A DNA stretch of 64,000 nt from Minisyncoccia bacterium (GTDB taxonomy: Bacteria; Patescibacteriota; Minisyncoccia; Phycocordibacterales; PALSA-1337). Location: NCBI GenBank assembly GCA_044228445.1, contig JBGAUV010000001.1, positions 15,827 through 79,826 of the forward strand, given 5' to 3'. Shown here piece by piece: positions 23,740 to 60,756 of this stretch (positions are counted from its first letter, which is position 1; every line of letters begins with the position of its first letter). Below the pieces are notes generated by a model. The model ran no database searches and was not told the DNA's origin. It saw only the letters and a program-made list of their open reading frames with translations. The position numbers were made by a program, and so were the translations under genes.

Positions 23740-25161
23740 TTACATTATTAATGAAGCCAAAGTTATGACAGAGTCAAAAACTGAAGCAACATAATGCCAA
23801 CCATTATTTTTTGTTACTGGGGCGGATTGTGAAATTACATTAAACTTCACTGTATAAACATCATCTCCCCACCAAATAACATCATAATATCCAGTCTTTG
23901 CATCATTTGGAACTGTGAATGTTATAACTTCATTGTTTGAATTTGTATAATTTACAAAACCATAACTTCCGAAGTTAAAATCTCCTAGAGTTACTGGTGA
24001 CTTTTTTGGATTGTTCAAAGTCAAAGTAACTTTTGTTCCTGGAGCACCTGATGCAGGATAAATTGATTTTATTCCTGGGGCAACAACTACCGCTGGTTGT
24101 ACACTTGCATTGGTTACTGATCCTTGTGTATTGTTTTGAATATTAGATTCATTTAATACTGTTGGAGCTATAACTTTGAATGTTGGAGAGAATACTCTTA
24201 CATTTCCTATTTCAACACCGATTCTTAAATCAGTATTTGTAAGCATATAATCTTCTACTTTCCAATCATATGATCTCTTTGTAGGATCAATATAACCTGT
24301 TCTTAGTGCTCCATATATATTTGGATTAGATGGAGACTGGAATATCAAAGTGAATCTAGCACTTTCAGGAACACCTGAAGCATTCCAATATATTGTATAT
24401 GTCTCCCCTTTTGTAACTGAAGTATTTTCAGTTACTTGAACTCCTGATGTTTTATTTACTATTTTTACATCAGTTATATTTGCATTCGCATAATATAATG
24501 TTTTTTCTGCTACGGGTGGAGTTGGTGGTAACTTTGGTCCAACATTTGCATTTGCACCTGCTGGTACTCCAAGTGGCTTAATATTACCGATACCATTATT
24601 ACATCCATACAATTTATTTAATCTAGCGCGTGTCATAGGCCCAACAAAACCTGTTGTAGGAATTCCATTTTGTCTTTGGAATTTTTTTACAGCATCTTTT
24701 GTTGATATTCCAAACACTGGATTCTTCAATTCTCTCTCACTATTATTTATATCTATATTTTCTTTATCTTCCAAAAGAGTTTGTAGATTAAATAGTGCAA
24801 TACCAGAATCTTTTTCTATTGGTACACCTATGTCCATATTTCTAGGGTCAAGATCAAAGTTAAATGTATAACAATACTTTGGATCTAGTTTTGTTACACT
24901 ACTCTTAACTTCTTCTTTACCACTTGTTGTATCCTCAATTTTAAATGAAGGATTAACAGTTCTTGTTTCTATCTTTGAACATATATAGCCCGCAGGACAA
25001 CCAACTGGTTGTTCAACTATAGGTCTACATGTATATCCTGCTGGACAAGCAATAGCATTTGTATTTGTTTCTGCAAATACTTCCTTTACTTGTGGCAATG
25101 AATAAGCAGCCACTGTAAGAATGGCTACTGCAAGAATATGTTTTTGATGTTGATTTAACAT
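23740..25161 (-). CDS. Secreted protein with duplicated CPxGYxC motif and a putative peptidoglycan-binding (PG_binding_1-like) segment
   Basis: CPAGYTCRPIVEQPVGCPAGYICS after signal peptide; KDAVKKFQRQNGIPTTGFVGPMTRARL resembles PG_binding_1. Confidence 0.5.
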   Translation of the reverse strand: MLNQHQKHILAVAILTVAAYSLPQVKEVFAETNTNAIACPAGYTCRPIVEQPVGCPAGYICSKIETRTVNPSFKIEDTTSGKEEVKSSVTKLDPKYCYTFNFDLDPRNMDIGVPIEKDSGIALFNLQTLLEDKENIDINNSERELKNPVFGISTKDAVKKFQRQNGIPTTGFVGPMTRARLNKLYGCNNGIGNIKPLGVPAGANANVGPKLPPTPPVAEKTLYYANANITDVKIVNKTSGVQVTENTSVTKGETYTIYWNASGVPESARFTLIFQSPSNPNIYGALRTGYIDPTKRSYDWKVEDYMLTNTDLRIGVEIGNVRVFSPTFKVIAPTVLNESNIQNNTQGSVTNASVQPAVVVAPGIKSIYPASGAPGTKVTLTLNNPKKSPVTLGDFNFGSYGFVNYTNSNNEVITFTVPNDAKTGYYDVIWWGDDVYTVKFNVISQSAPVTKNNGWHYVASVFDSVITLASLIM

Positions 25162-25380
25162 AGTTTGTTAATAATTTTAATAATCGCACAATATTTACGA
25201 ACCTAATTTCAAACCTACTTTTAAAAGTTATTTGATATATGATCAAATATTCAAGTAGTTTATAAAAAGAAAAATCGAGCCAGTTTCCTGTGCCCGTTTT
25301 CGAGTAGTGTCTCTTGCTTATAAGAATACTACTTAATATTTTTCTTTGCAATTGTAGTTATCCACAATTGCTATTTTATA

Positions 25381-27525
25381 TTATTTTCTAGCTTCTGCTA
25401 TTTCCTTTTCAATATTTGGTGGAACTACTTCATAGTGATCGAATTCCATTGTTGAGCTTCCTTGTCCTGAAGTCATAGAACGAAGCTGAGTAGTGTAACC
25501 GAACATTTCTGATAGAGGAACCTTGGCATGAAGTACCTTTGCTTGGCCTCTTTCTGTCATTTCTTCAATAGTACCTCGCTTTGACGAGATAGAACCTGTT
25601 ATATCACCCATATACTTTTCTGGGAATAGAACCTCTACCTTCATGATAGGCTCTAGTATAACTGGTCTTGCTCTTCTAGCAGCTTCTTGGAAAGCTTGTG
25701 AACCTGCTATCTTGTAAGCAATTTCTGATGAGTCAACATCGTGGTATGAACCGAATGTAAGTTCACAACTTACATTTACCATTTTGTATCCCGCAACAAT
25801 ACCTCTATCCATAGCTTCATGTACTCCCTTTTCAACTGCTGGAATAAATTCTTGTGGAATTACTCCTCCTTTAATTGAATCAATGAATTCAAAGTCATCA
25901 TAACGGCTAACATTTTTTGGAATCTTAGCTCCTGGTTCAATAGGCTTCATTGGAGATATTGTAATCTTCACGTGACCGTATTGTCCTTTACCTCCAGACT
26001 GCTTGATGTATTTATGTTCAGCTTCAGCAGTTCCAAGAATTGTTTCTCTGTATGCTACTTGTGGTTTACCAACATTTGCTTCAACACCGAATTCTCTCTT
26101 CATACGATCAACCATAATTTCAAGATGTAGTTCTCCCATACCTGCAATTAGTGTTTCTCCTGTTTCTGGGTTTGAACTTACTTTGAATGTTGGATCTTCA
26201 TTTGTAAGTTTACGAAGTGCCATACCCATTTTTTCTTGATCAGCTTTTGTCTTTGGTTCAATACGAAGTGATACCACAGGTTCTACGAATTTTATTGCTT
26301 CAAGAACAATTGGATTATTTTCATCACAGAATGTATGTGAAGTAAGTGCATCTTTTAATCCTACAGCAGCTGCAATTTCTCCTGCGAAAACTTTTTTAAC
26401 TTCTTCTCTCTTATCAGCTTGTAGACGAACAATACGTCCTAGTCTTTCTTTCTTTCCAGTTGTTGAGTTATATATATATGTACCTGCTTCTATTGTTCCA
26501 GAATAAACTCTAAAGAAAGTAAGTTGTCCTACGAATGGATCGTTTTGAAGTTTGAATGCTAGAGCTGCAAAAGGTTCTTCATCACTTGGTTTTCTTTCTA
26601 TTATTTCACCTGTATTTGGATTTGTACCTTTTACAGACTTTAGATCTGTAGGCGCTGGTAAATAATCAACAACAGCGTCAAGTACTAGTTGAACTCCAAC
26701 ATTTTTTAGAGCAGAACCTGTAAACACTGGGAATATTTTATTTTCAATTACCAGTTTTCTTATTTCAGCTTTTAGAACATCGACTGGAATTTCTTTTCCA
26801 TCCAAATACTGTTGCATAAGAGTATCATTATGTTCAACTGATTTTTCTATAAGTTCAGCATGATATTTTTTTGCATCGGCAAGATAAGCTTCTGGAATTT
26901 CTTTTTCTATAACATTAATTCCCTTTTCACCGTCAAAATAATAAGCCTTCATCTTTAATAGATCGATAACACCATTGTGTTCTCCTTCTGTACCTATTGG
27001 AATTTGGAATCTTACTGCTTTTTTATTTAGTCTTTCAAGGATAGATGCATATGATCTTTCAAATGATGCACCCATTCTATCCATCTTATTTATAAAACAT
27101 AGACGAGGCACATTACTTTCATCTGCATATCTCCAGTTTGTTTCTGATTGAGGTTCTACCCCTGCTACTCCATCAAAAACCACAACAGCACCGTCAAGAA
27201 CACGAAGAGATCTTTTTACTTCTACTGTAAAGTCAATGTGACCTGGTGTATCGATAACATTGAAACGAACCTTTTTTGAAGTATCTGTCTTTGGCATATA
27301 TGAAGGATTCCAAAAACATGTAATAGCAGCTGCGGTAATAGTAATACCTCTTTCTCTTTCCTGTTCCATCCAGTCAGTTGTAGTTGCACCATCGTGAACT
27401 TCACCAATCTTATGGATCATACCTGTATAATAAAGAATACGTTCTGATGTAGTAGTTTTACCAGCATCAATATGGGCTATAATTCCAAAATTTCTAACTT
27501 TTTCTAGTGGGTAATCGCGATTCAT
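25381..27525 (-). CDS. fusA: Elongation factor G
   Basis: AHIDAGKTT, DTPGHIDF, NKMD motifs; 714 aa. Confidence 0.95.
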   Translation of the reverse strand: MNRDYPLEKVRNFGIIAHIDAGKTTTSERILYYTGMIHKIGEVHDGATTTDWMEQERERGITITAAAITCFWNPSYMPKTDTSKKVRFNVIDTPGHIDFTVEVKRSLRVLDGAVVVFDGVAGVEPQSETNWRYADESNVPRLCFINKMDRMGASFERSYASILERLNKKAVRFQIPIGTEGEHNGVIDLLKMKAYYFDGEKGINVIEKEIPEAYLADAKKYHAELIEKSVEHNDTLMQQYLDGKEIPVDVLKAEIRKLVIENKIFPVFTGSALKNVGVQLVLDAVVDYLPAPTDLKSVKGTNPNTGEIIERKPSDEEPFAALAFKLQNDPFVGQLTFFRVYSGTIEAGTYIYNSTTGKKERLGRIVRLQADKREEVKKVFAGEIAAAVGLKDALTSHTFCDENNPIVLEAIKFVEPVVSLRIEPKTKADQEKMGMALRKLTNEDPTFKVSSNPETGETLIAGMGELHLEIMVDRMKREFGVEANVGKPQVAYRETILGTAEAEHKYIKQSGGKGQYGHVKITISPMKPIEPGAKIPKNVSRYDDFEFIDSIKGGVIPQEFIPAVEKGVHEAMDRGIVAGYKMVNVSCELTFGSYHDVDSSEIAYKIAGSQAFQEAARRARPVILEPIMKVEVLFPEKYMGDITGSISSKRGTIEEMTERGQAKVLHAKVPLSEMFGYTTQLRSMTSGQGSSTMEFDHYEVVPPNIEKEIAEARK

Positions 27526-44644: not shown

Positions 44645-45020
44645 ACAGCTATTATATCAGTACTGTATAACAAAGAGTATGTGTATAAACATATTGCTAA
44701 TTAATAATTAAGGAGTAGCATTATGTGTGGAGGTGTTTATGATAGCAAAGCTTTTGTTATCGACAATTATTATTATCGCTGTACTTAGTCTAGCTCTAGC
44801 GGTAGTTGTTTGTGAAATACTAAACCCCAGTTTTTTAAACCGAAAGGTCACAAAATGATAATTTTTTACAACTGTATAGGCTTTTGCCTGTACAGTTGTT
44901 TGTTTTATACACAAAATCTACTATTGCTTTAGTCATCACCTTCTGGTATATTGTTGTTATCAGTAGTTCGCCCTCCCAGGCGGACATTTTTTATAAAAAG
45001 GGGTTAATAATAATAAATAT

Positions 45021-52126: not shown

Positions 52127-52252
52127 TAAAGTATTGTTTCATCATTTTAGCCCTATTGCGCTAAATTATACACAATATATAATTATACCGAGGTTACAAG
52201 CTTTGGTATTTATAACCGAAGAAAAAATTATTACTATTAATCATAATTAAAT

Positions 52253-55022: not shown

Positions 55023-55397
55023 CTATAATATCACATTTTCCATAAAAGACACTTTTGCTAGTCTAGTATTTGTGTTCATATAAACACAAGCAATATGGAA
55101 TTGAAACTCTATATCCAGTCCATATTTCATTTCAATCATATATGTTTGTATTACTCTTTTAAGTCTTTTTTGTTTCAATTCATGGACATTTTCTTCTGGC
55201 CTATAATTCCCTGTCCCATTTATACTCTTTACTTCGATAAAATGCAAAATACCCTTTTTACTAGCCACAATATCTATTTCTCCCCACTTTTTTGCATAAT
55301 TCCTGTCTATTATAAGAAAATTGTTCTTTATAAGATATTTACATGCAATATCTTCACCTATACGGCCTATTTCTTTGCTATTTTTATTTTTTTCCAC
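55023..55397 (-). CDS. yraN: YraN/UPF0102 family endonuclease-like protein
   Basis: GE.IA..YL...G..I..RN....GEIDIVA......HF.EVK pattern typical of UPF0102. Confidence 0.65.
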   Translation of the reverse strand: MEKNKNSKEIGRIGEDIACKYLIKNNFLIIDRNYAKKWGEIDIVASKKGILHFIEVKSINGTGNYRPEENVHELKQKRLKRVIQTYMIEMKYGLDIEFQFHIACVYMNTNTRLAKVSFMENVIL

Positions 55398-55477
55398 AAT
55401 TTTATTAACACTGTATTAGGTCATAAACAAAGGTCAGAGACACGATTATAAGCCATATTTTCTGTCTCTTATAAACA

Positions 55478-55508
55478 CTATCCACAAAGTTATCCACAGT
55501 TATACACA
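55478..55508. promoter_or_regulatory. Three tandem DnaA-box-like 9-mers in helical phase (CTATCCACA, TTATCCACA perfect, TTATACACA)
   Basis: Starts at 55478, 55490, 55500; consensus TTATCCACA; between tRNA-Gly and yraN. Confidence 0.4.
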
Positions 55509-55537
55509 ATTGTCCTTGTAGATACGAAACTGAAATG

Positions 55538-55608
55538 AAACAAAATGTGCGGGTAAGGAGAATCGAACTCCTACCTCATCCTTGGCAAGGACGTGTCCTA
55601 CCACTAAA
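55538..55608 (-). tRNA. tRNA-Gly (anticodon GCC), no encoded CCA
   Basis: rc: acceptor GCGGGTA/TACCCGC, anticodon stem CGTCC/GGATG with loop TTGCCAA, T-arm AGGAG-TTCGATT-CTCCT. Confidence 0.8.
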
Positions 55609-55694
55609 CGATACCCGCAAATAAACTTAACAAGTTAAATATAATATTTTATTGCAAAAAAATCCACTATTTTAAATATAAAACTAATATTTTG

Positions 55695-55766
55695 TGCTTC
55701 CGGAGGGACTCGAACCCCCAACAACGGTTCCGAAGACCGGTATGATATCCATTTCACCACGGAAGC
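55695..55766 (-). tRNA. tRNA-Arg (anticodon TCG), no encoded CCA
   Basis: rc: acceptor GCTTCCG/CGGAAGC, anticodon loop CTTCGGA (one mismatch in anticodon stem), T-arm GGGGG-TTCGAGT-CCCTC; TTGGCA-17-TATTAT promoter ends 7 nt before the 5' end. Confidence 0.7.
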
Positions 55767-55772
55767 ATTAAC

Positions 55773-56435
55773 CTAACCATAATACTTTATTAACATCTTT
55801 TGCCAAGCTAATACCTTTAAAATAATACTAACATCATTATACATCACTGACATTATTCCTTTAGTGTGATCGCCCTTTTTTGAGTCATTATCCCCTCTTT
55901 TATATGCATATACCTTAATACTTTCTTCAGGTATATCCAAATACTGTGACCAGAAATCAACAGTATTAACATAATCATCATTTAATCCTAAATAAATTTT
56001 AAACTTTAGCTTTTCTTTATCTATTGAAAGGTATTTATTCATCCAAACTAGCATTATTTTATGAATTTCAGGGTTTTTATGTGTGAAACTATAGTAATTT
56101 GATGTTTTATTACCATGACCTTCATATAAACCTAGTCCGTAACAGAACATTGCTTCGTTCACAAAACCTAAGAAAATCTTATTAGCTTGTTCGTATAAAG
56201 TCTTATCCGCAAAGACCTTTCTAGATCTAATACTGATTTTTGACTTCATTCTCCCCTTTTCTACCCTATTCTTTGTATTCTCTTTTATGATAGCAAGTTC
56301 ACTTTCAGTAAGTTTATAATTCTTCAACCACAAAGAAACACTGGATTTTGAAATACCAAGTTCACTACTTATTTGAGTATAAGTTTTCCCTTCTCTTCTT
56401 AAAAGTATTGCTTTATCTCTATTTCGAATAGACAT
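55773..56435 (-). CDS. HTH-domain protein (IS630/resolvase-type N-terminal HTH) of unknown function; possible degenerate LAGLIDADG-like segment
   Basis: ILLRREGKTYTQISSELGISKSSVSLWLKNY HTH; YGLGLYEGHG vaguely resembles LAGLIDADG; start moved to MSIRNRDK. Confidence 0.4.
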   Translation of the reverse strand: MSIRNRDKAILLRREGKTYTQISSELGISKSSVSLWLKNYKLTESELAIIKENTKNRVEKGRMKSKISIRSRKVFADKTLYEQANKIFLGFVNEAMFCYGLGLYEGHGNKTSNYYSFTHKNPEIHKIMLVWMNKYLSIDKEKLKFKIYLGLNDDYVNTVDFWSQYLDIPEESIKVYAYKRGDNDSKKGDHTKGIMSVMYNDVSIILKVLAWQKMLIKYYG

Positions 56436-56505
56436 ATTGTAATTATATAATAGCATATATATGTACAATATTGAAATTTATTGAGTAAAATGCTAGACTT
56501 TTCAC

Positions 56506-57999
56506 ATGAAACATACTCAATTATTAAATGAGGTTATACCTGCTGAGGTGGTAAGTGCTATAGAGACACTAGAAAAGGGTGGTTTTGAAGCATATCTAGT
56601 GGGTGGTTGTGTAAGAGATATATTACTTGGTAGGGAACCAAAAGACTGGGATATAACTACAAATGCTAAACCAGAACAAATAATCCCATTATTCAAAAAA
56701 ACTTTCTATGAAAACAGCTTTGGAACCGTAGCTGTAGTGAATGAAGATACAAAAAATGAAAAACTAAAAGTAATTGAGATAACTCCATATAGAATAGAAG
56801 GGAAGTATAGTGATTTTAGACACCCAGATGAAATTAAATTTGGAGAAAGTATAGAACAAGATCTAAAGAGAAGAGACTTCACAGTAAATGCAATGGCAAT
56901 GAGTTTATCAAATGGGTCTATAAAGGACATAATTGATTTATACGGTGGTTTAAAGGACATAAAGGACAAAGTACTCAGATCAGTAGGTGAAGCGTCACTA
57001 CGCTTCAATGAAGACGCTTTAAGGATGATGCGTGCTGGTCGCTTAGCAACAGAACTTGGTTTCACGTTAAACATTGATACTGAAAAGGCTATAAATAAGG
57101 ATAAAATACTTTTAAAACAGATATCTAGTGAGAGAATTAGAGATGAATTTGTTAAAATTTTAATGTCTAAACAACCTAAAGAGGGAATTGATACTTTGTA
57201 CAGACTAGGAATACTTGAAATTATACTACCTGAACTTCATAAAGCTAAGGGTGTTACACAAAATCAAGCGCATGCTTATGATGTATATGAACACCTATTG
57301 AGAAGTCTCCAGCATGCAGCGGATAAGGATTGGCCTATTGAAATAAGGCTTTCAGCTCTATTTCATGATATATCAAAGCCTGAGACAAAGAGATTTTCAC
57401 GTGAAACTGGTCAAATTACATTCTATAACCATGAAGTTGTAGGTTCACGTGTAACAAAAGCAATACTGGAAAGGATGAAGTTTCCAACGAAAACAATAGA
57501 TAAGGTATGTACAATGATAAGATGGCATATGTTTTTCTCTGATACGGAAACAATAACACTATCCGCAGTAAGAAGAATGATAAACAACGTAGGTAAAGAT
57601 AATATATGGGATTTAATGAATTTACGTATATGTGACCGCATAGGAACTGGAAGGCCCAAAGAAAACCCTTATAGATTAAGGAAGTATAAAGCTATGGTAG
57701 AACAAGCTATGCACGATCCAATAAGTGTGGGAATGCTTAAGATAGATGGAAAGGGGATAATGGAAGTTACACATGAAACTCCTGGACCAAAAATTGGTTA
57801 TATATTAAATGCTTTATTAGAAGAGGTTTTAGACAAACCAGAACTAAATACAACTGATTATTTGAACAATAGAGCCGTAGAATTATCAAAAATGCCTGTA
57901 AAAGAATTAATTGAACTAGGAAATAAGGGTAAAGAGAAGAAAGATAAAATAGAAAAGGGAAGTATTGAGGAAATCAATAAGAAGTATCACGTTCAATAA
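56506..57999 (+). CDS. cca: CCA-adding enzyme / tRNA nucleotidyltransferase with HD domain
   Basis: Pol-beta NTase head (LVGGCVRDILLGREPKDWDITT), HD motif (FHDISKP). Confidence 0.85.
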   Translation: MKHTQLLNEVIPAEVVSAIETLEKGGFEAYLVGGCVRDILLGREPKDWDITTNAKPEQIIPLFKKTFYENSFGTVAVVNEDTKNEKLKVIEITPYRIEGKYSDFRHPDEIKFGESIEQDLKRRDFTVNAMAMSLSNGSIKDIIDLYGGLKDIKDKVLRSVGEASLRFNEDALRMMRAGRLATELGFTLNIDTEKAINKDKILLKQISSERIRDEFVKILMSKQPKEGIDTLYRLGILEIILPELHKAKGVTQNQAHAYDVYEHLLRSLQHAADKDWPIEIRLSALFHDISKPETKRFSRETGQITFYNHEVVGSRVTKAILERMKFPTKTIDKVCTMIRWHMFFSDTETITLSAVRRMINNVGKDNIWDLMNLRICDRIGTGRPKENPYRLRKYKAMVEQAMHDPISVGMLKIDGKGIMEVTHETPGPKIGYILNALLEEVLDKPELNTTDYLNNRAVELSKMPVKELIELGNKGKEKKDKIEKGSIEEINKKYHVQ

Positions 58000-58590
58000 T
58001 AAACTTAATAATTAGTATTATATTAAAAAAGCTAAATATTTAACTCTTGTAATATTATTTCACGTGAAACTGTATATAAAGTAGTAAATATGGCTATAAA
58101 TAAGGCTACAATAAGAAAACCGCGTATGACGTCGATTTCCAGAGGTTACATGAAATCGCATCAAAACGCGGTTTTTAGAGTACATCTGGAAATTGTCAAA
58201 AGAGCTAATGAAGAACTGACCGTCAAGATCGAGCGTGGGAGAAGACGTGATATGCTTCAATAAATTTAGGTGCCACCCAGATAAGGTGACTAGTTGTTAA
58301 TTGTGAAGACAAACGTCTCAAGCCATAGCCCAAACAAGGGCTGCCTTCGGTATTACCTCTACTTGAGGTAATAAAAAAAATAAACAATTTTTCAGATGTA
58401 AAAAACTAAAGAGTACACTACCCATTTTTTTACAAAGAACAATTGTTCGAAAATAATTTTTATCTATTAGATATTTCCTTGGTTTAACCTAACAGATATT
58501 TAACTTTCAAACTGATCTGGGATTATTATAGCAAGTGTAAAAGACATGTAAAGGACATTTAAATAAAAACTGTGGATAAGTCCTTTATAT

Positions 58591-59364
58591 TTATCTGTCC
58601 TTTAAAATAATTTCAATTGGACAATGGTCAGAACCCATTATTTCACTTAGTATTTTTGCTTTTTCTATTTTTTTAAATATTCCTTGTGTTGCAAAAAAAT
58701 AATCAATTCTCCAACCAACATTTCTTTCTCTTGAAAATGTTTTCATATCCCAATATGTATAACAATCTTTTTTATTTGGATTCAAACTTCTCCAAACATC
58801 TATAAAACCATATTGTATAACTTCATCTATCCAGGCTCTCTCTATGGGTAAGAAACCAGTGTTTTTTTCATTTGCTTTTGGTCTAGCCAAGTCTATTTCT
58901 GTATGGGCGGTATTTATATCTCCACAAAATATTACTTCTTTTCCATCTTTCTTATGTTTATTAATAAATTTTAAAAATTCATCGTAAAACTCTAGTTTGT
59001 ATTTAAGTCTGTCTGGACCACTACCTCCATTAGGGAAGTAGGTGTTTATAAGTATGAAATCTTTGAAAAATAGAGCTAGAAATCGTCCTTCTTGATCGTA
59101 TTGGGGTATTCCAAGACCGTATTCAACCTTTTCTGGCTTTATCTTTGTATATATTGCAACTCCACTATATCCTTTTTTTTCTTTTGAATGATCAAAATAT
59201 GCAAAATAACCCTTTGGGTTCCTAGTATTTTCATCCAATTGATCTGGGTGAGACTTTGTTTCTTGTATACAGTATATATCTGGACTTTTCTTTAAAAACC
59301 AATCAAATCCTCCTTTTTTAACATTTGCACGCAAACCGTTCACATTCCAAGATATTATGTTCAT
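58591..59364 (-). CDS. xth: Exodeoxyribonuclease III (AP endonuclease)
   Basis: MNIISWNVNGLRA, ...CIQETK, ...GDHCPI EEP-family signature. Confidence 0.9.
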   Translation of the reverse strand: MNIISWNVNGLRANVKKGGFDWFLKKSPDIYCIQETKSHPDQLDENTRNPKGYFAYFDHSKEKKGYSGVAIYTKIKPEKVEYGLGIPQYDQEGRFLALFFKDFILINTYFPNGGSGPDRLKYKLEFYDEFLKFINKHKKDGKEVIFCGDINTAHTEIDLARPKANEKNTGFLPIERAWIDEVIQYGFIDVWRSLNPNKKDCYTYWDMKTFSRERNVGWRIDYFFATQGIFKKIEKAKILSEIMGSDHCPIEIILKDR

Positions 59365-60319: not shown

Positions 60320-60369
60320 GACTATATTGTAACAGAAATATAGTTTTCCACAGTTATACACAGAATTGT

Positions 60370-60398
60370 TTGACAAGCTTTTTCTATGGGAGTATATT
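60370..60398 (+). promoter_or_regulatory. Consensus sigma70-type promoter (TTGACA, 17-bp spacer, TATATT) driving the GC-rich noncoding unit
   Basis: TTGACA at 60370..60375, TATATT at 60393..60398. Confidence 0.45.
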
Positions 60399-60404
60399 CA
60401 TGTA

Positions 60405-60756
60405 CGAAGCAGTACATTGGAAGTAATTAAGCAGTAGTCGGTGAACCGATGTGACTGCTCTGTCACAAAACCCGCTCCACACGCGATGTGTGGAGCAAAT
60501 TGGAAAGGTCCCAACTATGAAGAGTCCGAACGCGCCCCCTGGCAACGTTACCGTTGCCACCGCCCCCCATGGATTCAATGGCCTGACGAAGGCCTCCACC
60601 CCCCTGCGGAATACGGAGTATCCCGACAACCCGGCCCGCATCGCCTCCTCCCAGAAGCTCGGAGAACCGAGCACGTACGGTTGCTCCGCCTGACCACTCT
60701 AATCCGGTCAGAACGAGCATTTGCCACTTCATCCGGTCGATGGAGTGGCATTTTTT
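60405..60756 (+). ncRNA. Putative ~350-nt GC-rich highly structured ncRNA (class unassigned; RNase P RNA / tmRNA / novel)
   Basis: No plausible ORF (four mutually overlapping G/P/R-rich ORFs); ~60% GC; perfect hairpins (gctccacac-gcgat-gtgtggagc, ggcaacg-ttac-cgttgcc, gctcgg-agaa-ccgagc, ctgacc..ggtcag); ends in terminator gccacttcatc-cggtcg-gatggagtggc plus TTTTTT. Confidence 0.45.

Follow-up and report, generated by a model that had tools for sequence, protein, structure and literature searches.

What is the function of a tandem run of DnaA-box-like 9-mers lying between yraN and a tRNA-Gly gene in a genome of the Parcubacteria/Paceibacteria? The CPR/Patescibacteria, to which this ultra-small bacterium belongs, account for much of bacterial diversity, and almost none of them have been cultured. 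A literature search retrieved no description of an origin of replication from Parcubacteria/Paceibacteria; a study of Peregrinibacteria notes only that skew was used to find CPR origins and that short repeats and sequences resembling DnaA boxes lay close to them (PMC4736985). The window, i.e., the whole stretch of 64,000 nucleotides analysed here, has 32% GC; among its genes are ribosomal-protein operons, type IV pilus genes and those for RNase Y, HU, NusA and further housekeeping proteins. A first-pass annotation had reported three DnaA-box-like 9-mers in it and had proposed a DnaA-regulated promoter, a replication-related element or the site of another regulator. Judged from sequence comparison, the triplet probably forms the core array of DnaA boxes in one half of a combined oriC and centromere region that is remote from dnaA.

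The three 9-mers were all recovered on the plus strand at 55478, 55490 and 55500, with the reported spacings of 12 and 10 bp. The triplet stands, and the array is larger than had been described: a fourth box (box a) precedes it, and a partner box at 58571, a parS-like cluster and a further motif, TGTCCTTTA, come in addition. The four same-strand boxes occupy 55469-55508, start 9, 12 and 10 bp apart and are roughly helically phased. The array and its immediate neighbors are as follows.

55023-55397, minus strand: yraN/UPF0102 gene, on one side of the array
55445-55450, minus strand: TATAAT -10 hexamer of a putative promoter of yraN, located within the inverted repeat AGAGACA...TGTCTCT
55469-55477, plus strand: box a, TTATAAACA, matching TTATNCACA at 8 of 9 positions and opening the tandem array
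55478-55486, plus strand: box b, CTATCCACA, an 8/9 match and a weaker box
55490-55498, plus strand: box c, TTATCCACA, perfect DnaA-box consensus and anchor of the array
55500-55508, plus strand: box d, TTATACACA, of the TTATNCACA class, 10 bp after box c
55547-55618, minus strand: tRNA-Gly(gcc), on the other side of the array
55547-55766, minus strand: tRNA-Gly(gcc) and tRNA-Arg(tcg), between the box array and cca

The TATAAT at 55445-55450 may serve as the -10 of a yraN promoter, as judged from the sequence. Close relatives keep the block acacgattataagccat there, and the -35 region expected for this promoter coincides with box a.

Perfect boxes had been expected about 0.5 times per 64 kb by chance, which is of the right order (a composition estimate gives about 0.8); the window has four. 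Regarding TTATNCACA, 13 occurrences were observed versus 4.4 ± 2.1 expected, a number that none of 100 shuffles reached, and 33 boxes with at most one mismatch to TTATCCACA compare with 22.8 ± 4.7 expected. Ten of the 14 matches to [C/T]TATNCACA are intergenic when read against the ORF list of the window. The claim that a phased triplet exceeds chance was borne out: the window has one same-strand triple of boxes within 40 bp, whereas 300 first-order Markov simulations yielded none, and three same-strand pairs within 13 bp versus 0.02 expected. Boxes close to TTATNCACA, of which a bacterial oriC is expected to have a cluster of at least three, number four at 55469-55508, one at 58571 (minus strand) and two at 60344-60362. 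Elsewhere in the window, an isolated intergenic TTATCCACA lies at 25358-25366 (plus strand), between the minus-strand genes 25381-27525 and 23740-25161, and an isolated TTATACACA at 52166-52174 (plus strand), 79 nt upstream of the HU gene; either could be a lone site of DnaA regulation or a match by chance.

For comparison, 80 loci from Patescibacteria MAGs were found using the cca protein (56506-57999) as query; they are labeled Parcubacteria, Paceibacteria, Nomurabacteria and Kaiserbacteria, span a cca identity of 54-99% and a GC content of 31-60%, and were taken as stretches of about 21 kb with cca set on the plus strand at about 10.0-11.5 kb. Across these 80 loci, genomes of 55-60% GC included, the array lies between yraN and tRNA-Gly(gcc)/tRNA-Arg/cca in unchanged orientation. 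The gene order tRNA-Gly(tcc), tRNA-Pro, yraN, array, tRNA-Gly(gcc), tRNA-Arg(tcg), cca is conserved, and the synteny of the two tRNA genes that separate array and cca held in all 25 loci scanned for it. The two tRNA genes beside the array flip orientation between lineages, and the array does not. Single inversions of tRNA-Gly(gcc) and/or tRNA-Arg(tcg) were seen in L010-L016, L025, L030, L063, L076 and L079, array and cca keeping their direction. Between tRNA-Arg and cca the window has an ORF at 55773-56468 (minus strand; 220-231 aa) in which a domain, HTH_23, was assigned to the N-terminal part only. The contigs of two close strains, L081 and L082, have this ORF as well, whereas the tRNA-Arg-cca interval of most other relatives is too short to contain it, and it looks like an insertion into the putative origin region.

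Within the 21-kb loci, exact TTATCCACA is concentrated only at 8.5-10 kb (plus strand) and 11.5-12.5 kb (minus strand), i.e., almost only 0.4-1.5 kb upstream of cca on one strand and 0.3-1 kb downstream of it on the other; the equivalents in the window are 55490 (plus) and 58571 (minus). Of 66 eligible loci, 30 have an exact plus-strand copy within the 1.6 kb upstream of cca, the remainder carrying variants, a proportion that was counted against an origin; of 78 loci, 30 have an exact minus-strand copy within the 1.2 kb downstream of cca. With the upstream box as anchor, the consensus is cTTTAttAcacaTaTCCcCAgAgTTATCCACAGTTtT, which comprises an 8/9 box, a weak (A/T)NTCC(C/A)CA box and a perfect box. 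Box a appears in relatives as TTATAAACA, TAATACACA, TTATGCACA or TTATACACA; the counterpart of box b, consensus TaTCCcCA, starts 12 bp before box c; and many relatives add the fourth box, d, as gTTTTCCACA or gTTATACACA, so that the triplet described earlier corresponds to boxes two, three and four. Phased same-strand pairs number 19 upstream (plus strand) and five downstream (minus strand), with just four in the remaining ~1 Mb.

The second conserved position leads to the far side of cca, where the following features are found.

56498, 57058, 57393, 57441 and 58056 (span 56498-58071): parS-like cluster, at most three mismatches to TGTTTCACGTGAAACA
56506-57999, plus strand: cca (CCA-adding enzyme) gene, whose frame contains parS-like sites and three copies of TGTCCTTTA
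56921, 56951 and 56960, minus strand: TGTCCTTTA copies within cca
58525-58552, minus strand: promoter-like TTTACA-16-TATAAT reading towards cca, its -35 hexamer within TGTCCTTTACA
58571-58579, minus strand: partner DnaA box TTATCCACA, just downstream of cca and opposite in direction to the upstream array

The partner box is flanked by an inverted repeat, TAAAGGAC / TGTCCTTTA (58538-58604), and the architecture kept downstream of cca in relatives comprises the box, TGTCCTTTACA, TGTCYTTTA, a -10 hexamer and then CAGATC. Between cca and exoIII, 590 bp (58000-58590) are devoid of a long ORF. Blocks shared with relatives follow the conserved minus-strand promoter in this stretch (CAGATC, TAACCGAGGAT, GGGTAG and AACCCTT), and a 57-aa plus-strand ORF at 58090-58263, specific to this lineage, is called as a gene in L081. 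A comparison of the non-coding region at 58.0-58.6 kb with Rfam gave no family match. The stretch could be a small RNA or part of an origin.

parS sites are origin-proximal in bacteria. The window has five parS-like sites versus 0.29 expected, all of them within 56498-58071, in or just after cca, and among some 190 parS-like sites in relatives nearly all lie at 6.5-12.5 kb of the 21-kb loci; both sets are clustered matches to the TGTTNCACGTGAAACA palindrome close to the putative origin. Perfect 16-mers occur in L023, L044, L069, L072 and L079. Some sites lie inside cca codons (FSRET, GSRVT), where codons ending in A or T are kept even at 57-59% GC, and the 1.59 parS-like sites observed per cca gene represent a 14-fold excess over the 0.11 in synonymous-codon shuffles. 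The motif TGTCCTTTA (often TGTCCTTTACA, and the complement) behaves similarly, with 1.02 copies per cca gene versus 0.075 in such shuffles. It clusters in three places, namely near both box elements, within the 5' part of cca and, as the inverted repeat, on either side of the 58571 box. As TGTCCTTTA(CA) it also forms inverted repeats and direct repeats of 11-12 bp (56921-56968 on the minus strand and 58538-58604 in the window; 8.5-12.5 kb of the loci). The TTTACA at 58547-58552 raised the option that TGTCCTTTA(CA) is a general promoter element (as a -35 hexamer), which was rejected as motif and boxes are restricted to the locus and not spread over intergenic regions. We could assign TGTCCTTTA to no known factor; the motif points to a further factor that recognises it. 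The cca gene is a clear case of regulatory DNA motifs under selection within a protein-coding gene.

Leading strands are usually G-rich, and a switch of the skew from negative to positive has the polarity of an origin. Such a switch was found in the data from relatives: of the 39 full-length loci, 30 have a negative raw GC skew on the left and 29 a positive one on the right, and skew at four-fold sites, averaged over plus- and minus-strand genes, is -0.078 on the left side of the locus and +0.073 on the right side. The right-hand value is the higher one in 28 of 31 loci (Wilcoxon p = 4e-8), the samples not being fully independent because the left and right flanks of different loci have orthologous genes in common. 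The four class means agree with a simple model of a coding-strand baseline close to -0.1 and a leading-strand effect close to +0.1. In an ORF-level regression, the coding-strand effect was 0.040 and the effect of side +0.0154 ± 0.0045 (zero or below in none of 1000 bootstraps over loci). All 2-kb bins on the left are negative and all on the right positive, so that the step falls roughly 10-12 kb into the loci. The skew of the cca gene itself is left-like, which hints that the switch lies nearer to the downstream non-coding region at 58.0-58.6 kb; the motif constraints on cca make this placement uncertain. In the window, cumulative skew has its minimum at 54-60 kb; its four-fold sites contain so few G and C that the counts are too small to convince by themselves. 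Genes are mostly on the minus strand at 2.5-44.6 kb and mostly on the plus strand to the right of the locus, as seen in L081 (the contig of a 95%-identical strain, used for the gene list on that side). The genes at 45-52.5 kb are on the plus strand, head-on to a fork leaving the locus, which counts against an origin here.

The pilB (T2SSE)/nusA spacer is a gene-strand switch at the end of the long run of minus-strand genes, and it holds boxes with at most one mismatch (TTATACACA at 44680, minus strand; TTATCGACA at 44757, plus strand; TTATACACA at 44905, plus strand). An origin in this divergent spacer (44645-45020), which lies outside the loci compared, was considered and not adopted, no parS-like site being present there; it may be a minor DnaA-box cluster or a product of chance.

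A further element lies beyond exoIII.

60344-60362, plus strand: tandem pair TTTTCCACA-g-TTATACACA, the same box-g-box module as at 55490-55508

As previously reported, the 16-mer TCCACAGTTATACACA recurs exactly, and once, at 60347-60362. The pair is located between a xer-like recombinase gene (minus strand) and the promoter of a GC-rich RNA. The xer-like gene is apparently leaderless, with an extended -10 (TGtTACAAT) at 60326-60334 and a -35 region that overlaps the pair, and the TTGACA of a plus-strand TTGACA-17-TATATT promoter (60370-60398) starts 7 nt past it. The pair is lineage-specific: only TTTTCCACA is left in L002, and most relatives have a short xer-S15 spacer. The transcript-like unit that follows (60399-60748, plus strand, about 350 nt) has 64% GC in a genome of 32% GC, is led by the promoter at 60370-60398, ends in an intrinsic terminator at about 60715-60748 and has a folding z of -4.2. 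Rfam returned no match to the unit at 60.4-60.75 kb even at E ≤ 10, and the gene call over it in L081 is a spurious 159-aa ORF. The unit is missing from relatives other than L002; the counterpart there is in the same place and has in common with it just the 5' end ACGAAGCAGUACAU and a terminator; another promoter-led, structured-looking non-coding stretch lies at 13430-13950 of L002, between the GC-rich RNA and rpsO.

Several explanations other than an origin have to be weighed. The boxes may form an origin-proximal cluster that does not initiate replication and serves as an operator for yraN (and for tRNA-Gly where this gene is inverted) and/or as a sink for DnaA, which we regard as unlikely. 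B. subtilis is described as having DnaA-box clusters outside oriC (PMC3245932). The operator function would agree with the position of box a at the expected -35 of yraN, with the overlap of the 60344-60362 pair and the xer -35, and with the array of L010-L016, which lies about 80 bp upstream of a plus-strand tRNA-Gly; neither a DUE nor DnaA-trios were identified at the locus, and boxes and skew were followed over the window and the loci only, so a stronger box cluster beside dnaA is possible. On the other hand, in 28 of 31 relatives the skew switch is at this locus itself, inversions of the adjoining tRNA genes leave the array unmoved, and two convergent box elements with a parS cluster, all deeply conserved, exceed what an operator needs. 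The first-pass option of a DnaA-regulated promoter nevertheless retains a probable secondary role, given the boxes at the -35 regions of yraN and xer.

Much less probable is a different, lineage-specific regulator recognising TTATMCACA. Other factors probably do act at the locus, as indicated by the co-clustering of TGTCCTTTA with the boxes, but the core of these is letter for letter the near-universal DnaA-box consensus, and they coincide with the skew switch and the parS sites; another regulator is unlikely because this letter-perfect consensus is kept from 31 to 60% GC, a range of 30 points.

A 4.9-kb integrated element that carries the adjacent tyrosine recombinase and has the 16-bp direct repeats at 55493 and 60347 as its att-like ends is barely credible: the repeat is exact, tRNA genes adjoin one copy and a gene of the Phage_integrase family adjoins the second, but the interior (tRNA-Gly, tRNA-Arg, cca, exoIII and xer) is housekeeping and syntenic across relatives in place of variable cargo, L002 has the same gene order without the second half of the repeat, and the repeat is explained by the module of box c, g and box d. 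A dispersed (REP/MITE-like) repeat was rejected as well, the 16-mer having two copies even at three mismatches and the 9-mer family being confined to the locus in relatives. The first-pass annotation would have given up its reading for a 9-mer family that is common or dispersed; in the window and ~1 Mb of related DNA the family is rare outside the locus.

Among the options first offered, the replication-related one is therefore favored: the array is conserved in position and orientation and coincides with the parS cluster and with a skew switch of the origin type. The boxes, their conservation, the co-clustering of parS-like sites and the skew switch are observed here; binding by DnaA and ParB, the firing of an origin and the position of unwinding are what we infer from them. 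The origin region would extend from yraN to exoIII (about 55.4-58.6 kb) and would comprise the upstream array pointing at cca, tRNA-Gly, tRNA-Arg, cca, the parS cluster, the 590-bp non-coding stretch and the 58571 box. DnaA would bind the perfect box c and spread cooperatively over the weaker boxes a, b and d; array and partner box would nucleate an initiation complex from which forks depart both ways. ParB on the embedded parS sites would make the locus double as the centromere for partition. Secondarily, the yraN promoter should be modulated by bound DnaA, as should the xer promoter by DnaA at 60344-60362. Somewhat more tentatively, we suggest for the clade that Paceibacteria may replicate from a composite origin-centromere around tRNA-Gly/tRNA-Arg/cca, remote from dnaA, in which convergent box elements flank the gene and ParB sites and TGTCCTTTA, as the site of an origin-binding factor, lie inside the cca frame.

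It had been proposed earlier to locate dnaA/oriC by GC skew; the skew switch is at the locus, and no dnaA was found near it. A tblastn search of the window and the 80 loci with an approximate fragment of E. coli DnaA gave no hit, and neither dnaA nor dnaN was found within -55/+16 kb here (including the L081 gene list) or within ±10 kb in relatives. The usual landmark of an origin is thus missing, which counts against an origin at this locus. Several 40-bp stretches of 85-90% AT occur in 55379-58681, and none stands out in a genome of 68% AT or could be shown to be conserved. A BUS module consists of tandem boxes, a spacer of at most 16 bp and at least three DnaA-trios (3'-NAN-5', consensus GAT) (PMC8287927). 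Inspection by eye beside both box elements, with the box-to-trio orientation of the B. subtilis sequence, revealed no convincing trios; box d is followed by ATT GTC CTT GTA, four trinucleotides that have the required middle base, match CTA poorly and are not conserved in relatives.

If the origin reading is true, the order yraN, array, tRNA-Gly, tRNA-Arg, cca, parS, box would represent a clade-wide origin landmark by which assemblies could be rotated and checked. It would also provide an anchor for coverage-based estimates of growth rate (iRep/PTR) and defined DNA substrates for the DnaA and ParB of an uncultured lineage.

DnaA-box origins are textbook knowledge, and the locus shares features with several of them. 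In bipartite origins (B. subtilis incAB/incC, Helicobacter pylori oriC1/oriC2, Mycoplasma), two DnaA-box clusters are likewise parted by a gene, tandem same-strand boxes run from consensus to weaker, and promoters lie within the origin region. Here, in contrast, tRNA-Gly, tRNA-Arg and cca intervene instead of dnaA (which is at least 16-55 kb off), no DnaA-trios were recognised, and parS sites and an extra 9-mer are contained in the intervening coding sequence. The oriC of E. coli is also remote from dnaA and has one strong and several weaker boxes with a phasing of about 10-12 bp; its convergent Left and Right DnaA-oligomerisation regions resemble the two arrays of opposite orientation found here, whereas its arrays lie within about 250 bp with no gene between them and those described here about 3 kb apart, with no 13-mer-type DUE, IHF site or GATC signature identified. 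The DBCs of B. subtilis, datA of E. coli and DnaA-regulated promoters share clustered consensus boxes that overlap promoters; the DBCs and datA, unlike this locus, do not coincide with a skew switch or a parS cluster. Origin-proximal parS/ParB centromeres, such as that of B. subtilis with a parS within spo0J, likewise have several 16-bp palindromes of the TGTTNCACGTGAAACA type in each origin region, some of them in genes, whereas up to 9-10 degenerate sites are crowded here into 1-3 kb on one gene, cca, and interleaved with DnaA boxes. What sets this locus apart is the yraN/tRNA/cca location, the dense parS cluster lying partly in coding sequence, and the extra 9-mer.
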